From: Escherichia coli
GTDB lineage: Bacteria > Pseudomonadota > Gammaproteobacteria > Enterobacterales > Enterobacteriaceae
NCBI RefSeq assembly: GCF_003334385.1
Contig: NZ_QOWN01000005.1
Length of the DNA stretch: 64,000 nucleotides
Direction: 5' to 3' (one strand)
A program made the translations under genes and the position numbers. Shown here one piece after another: positions 10,440 through 60,377 of the stretch (position 1 is the stretch's first letter; every line of letters begins with the position of its first letter). Below the pieces are notes generated by a model. It did not search any database. It saw only the letters and a program-made list of their open reading frames with translations, and was not told the origin of the DNA.

Positions 10440-11098
10440 ACTTAACTCCACTGTCACACTTAACTCCCTTTCCCTTATTGGAATGCAGAGAAATAATCCT
10501 GAAGAATATGATTTATCATGCATATAAAATAAGAAAAAGCAAAATGAGTAAAATTCGGAAAACATAAAGATACGGGTTCTGATAAAAACAGAATCCATTG
10601 CCGTGGAATGAGTCATTTACCACAGCATAATAATCCATAATATTTTTGTTGCGAAAACAATCTAATCATAACTACCGCGAATACTCAATCATCTACAAAA
10701 TGGATTAAATGTGCTTATTTAATAATTAATTTATATATTTAATGCATTAATTCTTAACATTAATTGATCAATAATATTCACCAAATCAATATCAAAAAAA
10801 ATCGCAAAACATATAATTCAATACAAATCATCAGGATAGGTTTTGCAACGCGTGCATTTTGTCCCCTTTTTCCTCGTTGATTAGATGCAAAAATTTATGC
10901 TGAAATATGTCAACCGATGAAAAGCGTCGGTAGTTAAGCAGAAATTAATATCGCTTACTTTAACCACCGCAGCACAATTAGCTAATTTTACGGATGCAGA
11001 ACTCACGCTGGCGGGACGTTTTTATTGCGTCAGGGTTGACATCCGTTTTTGTATCCAGTAACTCTAAAAGCATATCGCATTCATCTGGAGCTGATTTA
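10440..11098. promoter_or_regulatory. leuO-leuL divergent intergenic region, strongly AT-rich (probable H-NS-bound silencing/promoter-relay region)
   Basis: 659-bp non-coding block; 10680-10860 is almost pure A/T (ttaataattaatttatatatttaatgcattaattcttaacattaattgatcaataatattc); role inferred from established knowledge. Confidence 0.5.
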
Positions 11099-11185
11099 AT
11101 GACTCACATCGTTCGCTTTATCGGTCTACTACTACTAAACGCATCTTCTTTGCGCGGTAGACGAGTGAGCGGCATCCAGCATTAA
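11099..11185 (+). CDS. leuL: leu operon leader peptide (28 aa) with four consecutive Leu codons
   Basis: ATG ACT CAC ATC GTT CGC TTT ATC GGT CTA CTA CTA CTA AAC ... = [28 protein letters not shown], stop TAA 11183-11185. Confidence 0.9.
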
Positions 11186-11208
11186 GCCAGCACGCAGTCA
11201 AACAAAAA

Positions 11209-11236
11209 ACCCGCGCCATTGCGCGGGTTTTTTTAT
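11209..11236 (+). terminator. leu attenuator intrinsic terminator
   Basis: acccgcgc-catt-gcgcgggt hairpin followed by T7 run, between leuL and leuA. Confidence 0.8.
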
Positions 11237-13942: not shown

Positions 13943-15959
<2,017 letters not shown>

Positions 15960-15966
15960 TCCCCTT

Positions 15967-15990
15967 GCCCGGTCAAATGACCGGGCTTTC
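15967..15990. terminator. Hairpin between convergent leuD and setA (probable terminator)
   Basis: gcccggtc-aaat-gaccgggc perfect 8-bp stem followed by tttc on plus strand. Confidence 0.55.
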
Positions 15991-16007: not shown

Positions 16008-17186
16008 TCAAACGTCTTTAACCTTTGCGGTTAAAAATAATGCGACAACAGAAATAACCGCAATTACCCAGTAGACAGCAAAGTGCCCCCAACTTTGTGC
16101 AATTGCTCCCTGAATAACGCCAGCCAGAATTACCCCGGTAGAAATACTGTTAGTAAATAAGGTGGTAGCTGCCCCCGCTCTTCCAGGCATTAAATCCTGA
16201 AACCATAGCATCCCAATACCCGCAACAATGCCGATAAATACAGCGTTAAAAAGTTGCAGCGTCATCAACGCCATACGGCTATTAAAGAAAATCAATCCGG
16301 TGTAAAACAGTACTCCTGCCGCCACTGCTATGACCATCATTCGCCGCTTACCATAACGTTTGACATAGTAGCCAGCCAGAATCATTGCTGGTATTTCCAG
16401 TCCAGCTGCCGTCCCCATCAGGAAACCCGCCAGTTTGTCTGGCAATCCTAACTCGCTACTGATCCACAACGGCATATCAATAATGTACATGGTGTTGCAG
16501 GTCCACATTAACGTCGAGGCGACAAATAACATCCGTACGTTACTATCCTGCCAGCCACCTTGCATTGATAAAGCATTTTCCGACGGCAGTTCTACCCGCG
16601 CCACAGACGGAAGCATAAATGCAATCAATACCAGACTGAGTGTGAATATCCCGGCGGCAATCGAAAACATCACCGTAAAGCCGTAATTCAACGCCAGCAT
16701 AAAGGCCAACGGTGGACCGATAACCCATGCCAGAGAAAGCTGCGCACGCATCACCGAGCTAAACATCACCACTTCTCGCGCCGAGTTATCCGCATATTCC
16801 CGCGCCAGAGCAAATAACTGTGGCATTGCCGTATTGGCCAGAGATGCCAGAAGCACACCACAGGTGATAAGCGTCAGATAATGACGATTAAATGCAAACA
16901 ATAGCGCATTGCCGATAGCCATCAAACAGCAAAATATAATCAGTTTTCGCCGATCGCCCTGACTGTCAGAACGTTTTGCCAACCAGAGGCTTACGCCGAT
17001 CCCAGCAATAGCATTCACCGTATAAAAGAGGCCGATCCAGAAAGGTTGCGCGCCAACCTCACGACTCAGAAATAAGCTCAATGTAGGAGCCTGTAGCGCC
17101 CCGGCCACCCCCATCATAAAAGCGACCAGCATAAATGCCGCGTAAACACCGTTCATACGGCGAGCCATCGTCATTATCCAGATCAT
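16008..17186 (-). CDS. setA: Sugar efflux transporter A (MFS)
   Basis: 392-aa ORF MIWIMTMARRMNGVYAAFMLVAFMMGVAG, 12-TM MFS profile; immediately downstream of sgrS. Confidence 0.93.
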   Translation of the reverse strand: MIWIMTMARRMNGVYAAFMLVAFMMGVAGALQAPTLSLFLSREVGAQPFWIGLFYTVNAIAGIGVSLWLAKRSDSQGDRRKLIIFCCLMAIGNALLFAFNRHYLTLITCGVLLASLANTAMPQLFALAREYADNSAREVVMFSSVMRAQLSLAWVIGPPLAFMLALNYGFTVMFSIAAGIFTLSLVLIAFMLPSVARVELPSENALSMQGGWQDSNVRMLFVASTLMWTCNTMYIIDMPLWISSELGLPDKLAGFLMGTAAGLEIPAMILAGYYVKRYGKRRMMVIAVAAGVLFYTGLIFFNSRMALMTLQLFNAVFIGIVAGIGMLWFQDLMPGRAGAATTLFTNSISTGVILAGVIQGAIAQSWGHFAVYWVIAVISVVALFLTAKVKDV

Positions 17187-17213
17187 ACGTTCCCTTTTTA
17201 GCGCGGCGAGAAT

Positions 17214-17440
17214 AAAAAAAACCAGCAGGTATAATCTGCTGGCGGGTGATTTTACACCAATACTCAGTCACACATGATGCAGGCAAGTCAACTTTCAGAA
17301 TTGCGGTCATCCCACTGCATCAGTCCTTCAAGCATGGTTAATCGTTGTGGGACGCTTAACCAACGCAACCAGCACAACTTCGCTGTCGCGGTAAAATAGT
17401 GCTGATAAAACTGACGCATGGGGCACCCCCTTGCTTCATC
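17214..17440 (-). ncRNA. sgrS: SgrS small RNA (glucose-phosphate stress sRNA, dual-function)
   Basis: Minus-strand 3' end reads ...AAATCACCCGCCAGCAGATTATACCTGCTGGTTTTTTTT (terminator, U8 tail at 17214-17221); 5' end GATGAAGCAAGGGGGTGCCC near 17440; divergent from sgrR; contains sgrT ORF. Confidence 0.85.
17288..17419 (-). CDS. sgrT: SgrT, 43-aa peptide encoded within SgrS
   Basis: C-terminal 43 codons of ORF-track frame 17288..17587: MRQFYQHYFTATAKLCWLRWLSVPQRLTMLEGLMQWDDRNSES, ATG at 17417-17419. Confidence 0.85.
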   Translation of the reverse strand: MRQFYQHYFTATAKLCWLRWLSVPQRLTMLEGLMQWDDRNSES

Positions 17441-17507
17441 GTTAGGAATTATTGACTTAATATAGGGAAAATAAAATTGCTGTCTTTTGCACAGGAGTTC
17501 CCCTTTT

Positions 17508-19163: not shown

Positions 19164-19198
19164 TTGCTGGTTGATAACAAAATCACTACACTAACGCC

Positions 19199-19291
19199 GT
19201 TCTCAACGGGGTGCCACGCGTACGCGTGCGCTGAGAAAATACCCGTCGAACCTGATCCGGATAACGCCGGCGAAGGGATTTGAGGCTCCTT
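19199..19291 (+). promoter_or_regulatory. sroA: TPP riboswitch (THI-box; sroA) in thiBPQ leader
   Basis: THI-box core ggggtgccacgcgtacgcgtgcgCTGAGAaaatACCCgtcgAACCTGATCCGGATAAcGCCGGCGaAGGGA upstream of thiB; boundaries approximate. Confidence 0.75.
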
Positions 19292-19326
19292 CTCAAGTCC
19301 TTTGCCACTCTTTTTTGAGGTGCAAA

Positions 19327-27972: not shown

Positions 27973-27989
27973 GTAGCCGCATCCGGTAT

Positions 27990-28415
27990 GTAACACCTGA
28001 TGCGACGCTGACGCGTCTTATCTGGCCTACACGCTGCGATTTTGTAGGCCGGATAAGCAAAGCGCATCCGGCATTCAACGCCTGATGCGACGCTGGCGCG
28101 TCTTATCAGGCCTACGCGCTGCGATTTTGTAGGCCGGATAAGCAAAGCGCATCCGGCATTCAACGCCTGATGCGACGCTGGCGCGTCTTATCAGGCCTAC
28201 GCGCTGCGATTTTGTAGGCCGGATAAGCAAAGCGCATCCGGCATTCAACGCCTGATGCGACGCTGGCGCGTCTTATCAGGCCTACGCGCTGCGATTTTGT
28301 AGGCCGGATAAGCAAAGCGCATCCGGCATTCAACGCCTGATGCGACGCTGGCGCGTCTTATCAGGCCTACACGCTGCGATTTTGTAGGCCGGATAAGCAA
28401 AGCGCATCCGGCACG
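27990..28415. repeat. Tandem array of five ~85-bp BIME units (paired inverted REP sequences) between araA and araD
   Basis: Unit boundaries about 27995/28080/28165/28250/28335; units 2-4 are identical 85-mers (gcctgatgcgacgctggcgcgtcttatcaggcctacgcgctgcgattttgtaggccggataagcaaagcgcatccggcattcaac), units 1 and 5 carry a few substitutions. Confidence 0.9.
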
Positions 28416-60201: not shown

Positions 60202-60377
60202 TGCCGGATGCGGCGTAAACGCCTTATCCAACTCTGCTGGAGAGCAACCGTAGGCCGGATAAGATGCGCCAGCATCGCATCCGGCGATAGCTGTCGGATG
60301 CGGCATAAACGCCTTATCCAACCCGGCTGGAGAGCAACCGTAAGCCGGATAAGATGCGCCAGCATCGCATCCGGCGA
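60202..60377. repeat. Two tandem ~86-bp BIME units (each an inverted REP pair) between convergent caiE and caiF
   Basis: Unit A 60202-60287 and unit B 60292-60377: t(g/t)(c/t)cggatgcggc(g/a)taaacgccttatccaac(t/c)c(t/g)gctggagagcaaccgta(g/a)gccggataagatgcgccagcatcgcatccggcga. Confidence 0.85.

Follow-up and report, generated by a model that had tools for sequence, protein, structure and literature searches.

The dual-function small RNA (sRNA) SgrS, together with the peptide SgrT that it encodes, is a textbook case among bacteria, and the whole SgrS/SgrT/setA system, read-through included, is already known. SgrS base-pairs with its target mRNAs, repressing ptsG and manXYZ and activating yigL, and SgrT inhibits the activity of PtsG (PMC4021124). 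In Escherichia coli K-12, sgrS and setA are described as an operon with SgrR-dependent co-transcription, a spacing of 27 bp and termination that is modulated by stress (Sun & Vanderpool 2011, as cited in PMC4509938 and PMC9765468). Read-through at this junction has been characterised since 2011 and has become a standard reporter for the efficiency of sRNA terminators. Two further systems can be compared by description. The Salmonella SgrS is likewise a dual-function RNA with sgrT, a conserved seed and control by SgrR (PMC4021124), but no 5' hairpin covers its sgrT ribosome-binding site and more SgrT is made; its SgrT has 40 aa, and its terminator lies 22 nt after the seed, as against about 10 nt in E. 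coli (PMC2760817). In the ryhB-yhhX pair, the terminator of an Hfq-type sRNA also acts as a partial, condition-dependent block, but co-transcription has only been suggested there, whereas for sgrS-setA it has been demonstrated (PMC4509938).

The DNA analysed here is a stretch of 64,000 nucleotides from E. coli (the window), and it sits in a K-12-type chromosome, in the leu-sgr-thi-ara region. A 24-kb query taken round the sgrS locus is 100% identical to laboratory strains derived from K-12, and a 701-nt query running from within sgrR through sgrS into setA matches E. coli K-12 MG1655 and many other genomes with 100% identity. Compared with the sgrS/sgrT of MG1655 (RF00534; WP_001248770.1), the gene is the same and nothing differs: the two share the same 227 nt, open reading frame, seed and terminator, the divergent sgrR, and setA 27 nt downstream. 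The elements of the locus and its surroundings are as follows.

15354-15959, convergent with setA: leuD, from the list of open reading frames.
16008-17186, minus strand: setA, MFS sugar efflux transporter of 392 aa with its ATG at 17186 (TIGR00899 and RefSeq).
17214-17440, minus strand: sgrS, Hfq-dependent dual-function small RNA of 227 nt (Rfam RF00534, MG1655 identity and fold).
17441-17507: divergent sgrR-sgrS control region of 67 bp, holding the sgrS promoter and SgrR-responsive sequences (coordinates from the neighbouring genes, function per PMC2760817).
17508-19163, plus strand: sgrR, transcriptional activator of sgrS and setA, 551 aa (NCBIfam NF010149 and RefSeq).
11085-11234: leucine operon leader (Rfam, 145.8 bits, above the gathering score).
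19197-19296: TPP riboswitch upstream of thiB (Rfam, 65.9 bits, above the gathering score).
60253-60323: naRNA4/REP-type element (Rfam, 70.7 bits, above the gathering score).

The protein-coding neighbours were assigned from curated models and from RefSeq, which annotates sgrR, sgrT and setA on the identical DNA of MG1655. SgrR reaches 1126.8 bits with the NCBIfam SgrR equivalog NF010149 (cut-off 476), and a 558-aa open reading frame that starts at a TTG was set aside as only a mechanical upstream extension of sgrR. SetA scores 602.6 bits with TIGR00899, above the curated cut-off of 522.3, and falls below the cut-off of the SetB equivalog model (446.7 against 693); the name setA is the one that RefSeq gives to DNA identical to that of the window. 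The small RNA gene is divergent from sgrR and lies between sgrR and leuD, which is the criterion of synteny applied to SgrS in PMC2760817. The locus is flanked by the leu operon and its leader on one side, and by the TPP riboswitch and thiB on the other; the matches to the leucine leader, the TPP riboswitch and naRNA4/REP are those expected for this region of K-12. The stop codons of the convergent genes setA and leuD leave a gap of 48 nt, in which we observed a perfect 8-bp hairpin, GCCCGGTC-ATTT-GACCGGGC (15967-15986), which is probably a bidirectional terminator and went unflagged in the consensus scan because it is without a T run. Farther away, the araA-araD intergenic region holds a copy-number-variable tandem repeat (27978-28413), whose 85-bp unit of the REP/BIME type is present in 5.1 copies in the window and within which four Rfam naRNA4 matches fall (28047-28367). 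An MG1655 assembly has 3.1 copies of this unit, 170 bp fewer than the window; the window aligns as one piece, at 100%, with assemblies of Stbl4, XL10-Gold and TOP10, and in two pieces with MG1655.

These data make it almost certain that we are dealing with the canonical E. coli K-12 sgrR / sgrS(sgrT) / setA glucose-phosphate-stress locus, together with its published mechanism, which applies because the sequence is identical to that of the experimental model, K-12. We found no sequence evidence against this explanation. For the window itself we computed the identity and integrity of each sequence element, the complementarity to ptsG and the architecture of the genes; for activation by SgrR, Hfq binding, the activity of SgrT and the read-through transcripts we rely on published work with the identical sequence.

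The RNA itself was assessed by a search of the whole window against Rfam 15. The SgrS model RF00534 matches over its full length, from 17440 to 17214 and over model positions 1-232 of 232, with a score of 228.8 bits, an E-value of 2.7e-64 and no non-canonical pairs flagged. The original prediction had named this RNA SgrS and had proposed a covariance-model search in advance as the check on that name; with a gathering score of only 37 bits the outcome was decisive, and the full-length match and the 100% identity to K-12 together bear the assignment out. No strand had been given, and the sequences that were quoted read on the minus strand, which is the strand of SgrS. The 227-nt RNA folds with a minimum free energy of -79.2 kcal/mol (z = -3.4 relative to dinucleotide shuffles). 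We placed the sgrS +1 at 17440 from the Rfam boundary and the literature; activation by SgrR and the mapped -10 and +1 of sgrS are described in PMC2760817. The sole promoter-like match upstream of sgrS, AAGACA-16-TATATT (17486-17459), was rejected as the sgrS promoter, since it ends 19 nt before the +1, too far for a -10. By eye, AATAAT at 17453-17448 appears to be a better fit to the sgrS -10; its -35 is poor, as expected for an activator-dependent promoter. Open reading frames on the plus strand over sgrS (17246-17341 and 17274-17399) and a promoter-like match on the same strand (17251-17278) had nothing in their support and were treated as mechanical or chance occurrences.

Within and directly after the RNA, we distinguish the following elements.

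17412-17438, minus strand: 5' hairpin that covers the Shine-Dalgarno and the start codon of sgrT, with a GGGG/CCCC core at 17420-17430 (local fold).
17288-17419, minus strand: sgrT open reading frame, 43 codons and a TGA, with the ATG at SgrS nt 22-24 (translation, Pfam and RefSeq).
17254-17273, minus strand: seed, the base-pairing region, SgrS nt 168-187, GUGUGACUGAGUAUUGGUGU (ptsG pairing, conservation and published genetics).
17245-17258, minus strand: small stem-loop GGUG-UAAAAU-CACC that closely precedes the terminator and overlaps the 3' end of the seed (fold of nt 168-227).
17214-17243, minus strand: rho-independent terminator and Hfq-binding module, with an 8-pair stem, a 7-nt loop and a U8 run (terminator scan, fold and Rfam terminal helix).
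17187-17213, minus strand: sgrS-setA spacer of 27 nt, AUUCUCGCCGCGCUAAAAAGGGAACGU, with AAGGGA as the likely setA Shine-Dalgarno (sequence).

An intact sgrT of 43 codons inside SgrS had been predicted, and both the translation and the protein domain agree with it. Positions 17288-17419 on the minus strand translate to MRQFYQHYFTATAKLCWLRWLSVPQRLTMLEGLMQWDDRNSES*, exactly as had been quoted, with the ATG at 17419-17417, the stop codon at 17290-17288 and a Shine-Dalgarno sequence present. A search of NCBIfam, which is without an SgrT model, gave no matches for the peptide, and Pfam was used instead: residues 3-37 match PF15894 (SgrT; E = 3.5e-13), and the identical DNA is annotated in RefSeq as 'sgrT: glucose uptake inhibitor SgrT'. 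The local fold of SgrS nt 1-45 has an energy of -12.4 kcal/mol with a z of only -1.25, so that the 5' hairpin alone is not statistically unusual; that the 5' structure of K-12 lowers SgrT translation is known from genetic evidence (PMC2760806). An alternative reading is that the K-12-type sgrT is a non-functional relic, with the RNA acting by base pairing only. The very low yield of SgrT from K-12 SgrS, which is due to the 5' hairpin (PMC2760806; PMC4021124), speaks for a relic, as do the change of the sgrT ATG to ATT in O157:H7 and the eight C-terminal residues that differ between alleles, which suggest relaxed constraint on sgrT. Set against these points, the reading frame is intact, with its ATG and Shine-Dalgarno, and matches the Pfam family, it is 100% conserved across the thousands of genomes with the K-12-type allele, and ectopically expressed sgrT of K-12 reportedly rescues growth and inhibits PtsG (PMC4021124). 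We regard a relic as unlikely, and retain the reading of SgrS as an RNA with two functions.

The 3' part of the RNA carries the seed and the terminator. When SgrS nt 158-190 were folded against the ptsG leader, taken from an E. coli genome, we recovered the 5-8-4 pattern of pairing known from PMC2760817. It spans the ptsG Shine-Dalgarno, and in it SgrS nt 168-187 pair with ptsG -28 to -8, the region of the ribosome-binding site (AGCACCCAUACUCAGGAGCAC). Only this run was informative: given full-length SgrS and the ptsG leader, RNAduplex paired the two from end to end, a meaningless result that did not surpass shuffled sequences. A search for the longest exact complement of the ptsG leader in SgrS does not single out the seed either; the top match is the 9-mer GCAAGGGGG (17426-17434), which lies in the 5' end of SgrS and is complementary to ptsG -59 to -51, which 33 of 300 shuffles equalled and which is probably due to chance. 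The raw complementarity to ptsG is not statistically exceptional, and the seed assignment rests on conservation and published genetics; the two sgrS alleles of E. coli, which differ at 27 positions across the whole RNA, are identical in the seed.

The original prediction had quoted a 39-nt string, AAATCACCC...TTTTTTTT, as the seed and terminator region. The string is exact and intact at 17214-17252, but the seed label was wrong: these are SgrS nt 189-227, the small 3' stem and the terminator, and the seed lies wholly upstream, separated from the string by a single base (17253). At 17243-17221 the terminator forms the hairpin GCCAGCAG-ATTATAC-CTGCTGGT, after which a T run extends to 17214, and the 3' module folds with -17.8 kcal/mol (z = -3.3). 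Both the terminator scan and the local fold agree that the terminator is intact, as had been predicted. A requirement for a long stretch of T residues in such a module is described in PMC4509938.

Read-through of this terminator into setA had also been proposed, and here the published co-transcription on the identical K-12 sequence supports the proposal. The setA ATG is at 17186 and the last U of SgrS at 17214, which confirms the predicted spacing of 27 bp, the same as that stated in PMC9765468. The two genes lie on the same strand with a gap of 27 nt and no intervening promoter-like match. The minus strand between the sgrS start (17440) and setA (17186) gave no sigma-70-like promoter match, a result that is consistent with the operon model. 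Sun and Vanderpool, in their 2011 work, are said to have found no setA transcript start downstream of the equivalent of 17440, and the induction of setA is reportedly lost without the sgrS promoter. Transcripts that span the terminator have been detected on the identical sequence by Northern blots, lacZ fusions and RNA-seq (PMC4509938, PMC9765468): on Northern blots, read-through shows up with the sgrS probe and with the setA probe alike, accounts for a few percent of transcripts and falls under stress (PMC4509938), and deletion of the terminator raises setA-lacZ 1.6-1.8-fold (PMC9765468). The products of read-through are non-functional as sRNAs, since their poly(U) is internal (PMC9765468).

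If setA instead had a promoter of its own, inside sgrS or just after it, the terminator would be a full stop, there would be no operon, and the adjacency of the two genes would be incidental. Such an arrangement would fit the observations that most sgrS transcripts terminate, with read-through of a few percent under stress (PMC4509938), and that the genes are separable, given that sgrS occurs without setA in about 2160 of 5426 E. coli genomes. We nevertheless consider it highly improbable, in view of the lack of any sigma-70-like match on the minus strand from 17440 to 17186, the mere 27 nt between the terminator and the setA ATG, and the published Northern blots (sgrS and setA probes) and setA-lacZ fusions, which show co-transcription from the SgrR-activated promoter (PMC4509938, PMC9765468). 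The arrangement that we prefer is an operon with a partial terminator.

Taken together with the literature, the locus would work as follows. Under sugar-phosphate stress, SgrR, which is divergently encoded 67 bp upstream, would activate the sgrS promoter, and most transcripts would stop at the hairpin-U8 terminator to give the 227-nt SgrS, whose U tail and 3' stems would bind Hfq. The seed (nt 168-187) would then pair with the ribosome-binding region of ptsG, and also with manX, yigL and others, altering translation and the stability of the mRNA. The same RNA would serve as the mRNA for the 43-aa SgrT and so lead to post-translational inhibition of the PtsG transporter, with the 5' hairpin over the Shine-Dalgarno expected to damp SgrT translation in K-12. 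A minority of transcripts would read through; with their poly(U) now internal, these would not be functional Hfq-binding sRNAs and would instead serve as setA mRNA, the ATG of which lies 27 nt downstream.

To place the locus among other E. coli, we tallied sgrS and setA across 5426 complete genomes. sgrS is present in 5400 of these, with at least 99% identity in 3230 and 80-90% in 2158; setA is found in 3241, with none detected by megablast in the remainder, and the sgrS-setA junction in 3240. About 60% of the complete genomes have the K-12-type allele and setA, and about 40% (some 2160) have a divergent allele and no detectable setA; across complete E. coli genomes, the association of allele type with setA is almost perfect. 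A dimorphism of alleles was noted for K-12, CFT073 and O157:H7 in 2009 (PMC2760817). The second allele, of the CFT073/O157:H7 type, is about 88% identical to the K-12 type. It too adjoins sgrR, its 5' two-thirds are identical bar a few bases, and the seed (nt 162-187) and terminator stem are identical; it differs in having a U6-C-U5 tail where the window has U8, and in the absence of setA. The 67-bp sgrR-sgrS control region differs between alleles by one base. The 27 differing positions within the RNA are unevenly placed: none falls in nt 162-187, 13 fall in the last eight sgrT codons and the spacer, and the rest are spread over the U tract, the loop of the terminator and the small 3' stem. 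In O157:H7 strain WS4202 (L001:3261-3520), leuD is convergent and follows 34 nt after sgrS, and the sgrT ATG is changed to ATT, as seen here and as reported in 2009 (PMC2760817). In the setA-less allele, the stretch from the terminator of sgrS to the stop codon of leuD showed no homology that would mark remnants of setA. In the same strain, a type III secretion effector gene, espY2, lies between the thiB TPP riboswitch and sgrR (L001:737-1306), an interval of about 30 bp in the window.

One might speculate from the linkage of allele type and setA that the 3' module of SgrS, with its small stem, U tract and terminator loop, co-evolved with the presence or absence of a downstream gene that depends on read-through, in which case the two alleles would differ in the efficiency of termination and in Hfq binding; we think this improbable.

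The locus proved recognisable from the raw sequence alone, and the sole context added here to a well-described system is the tally of alleles and setA across complete E. coli genomes. Because sgrS persists without setA in about 40% of E. coli genomes, the coupling of the two genes through read-through is dispensable for the function of SgrS.
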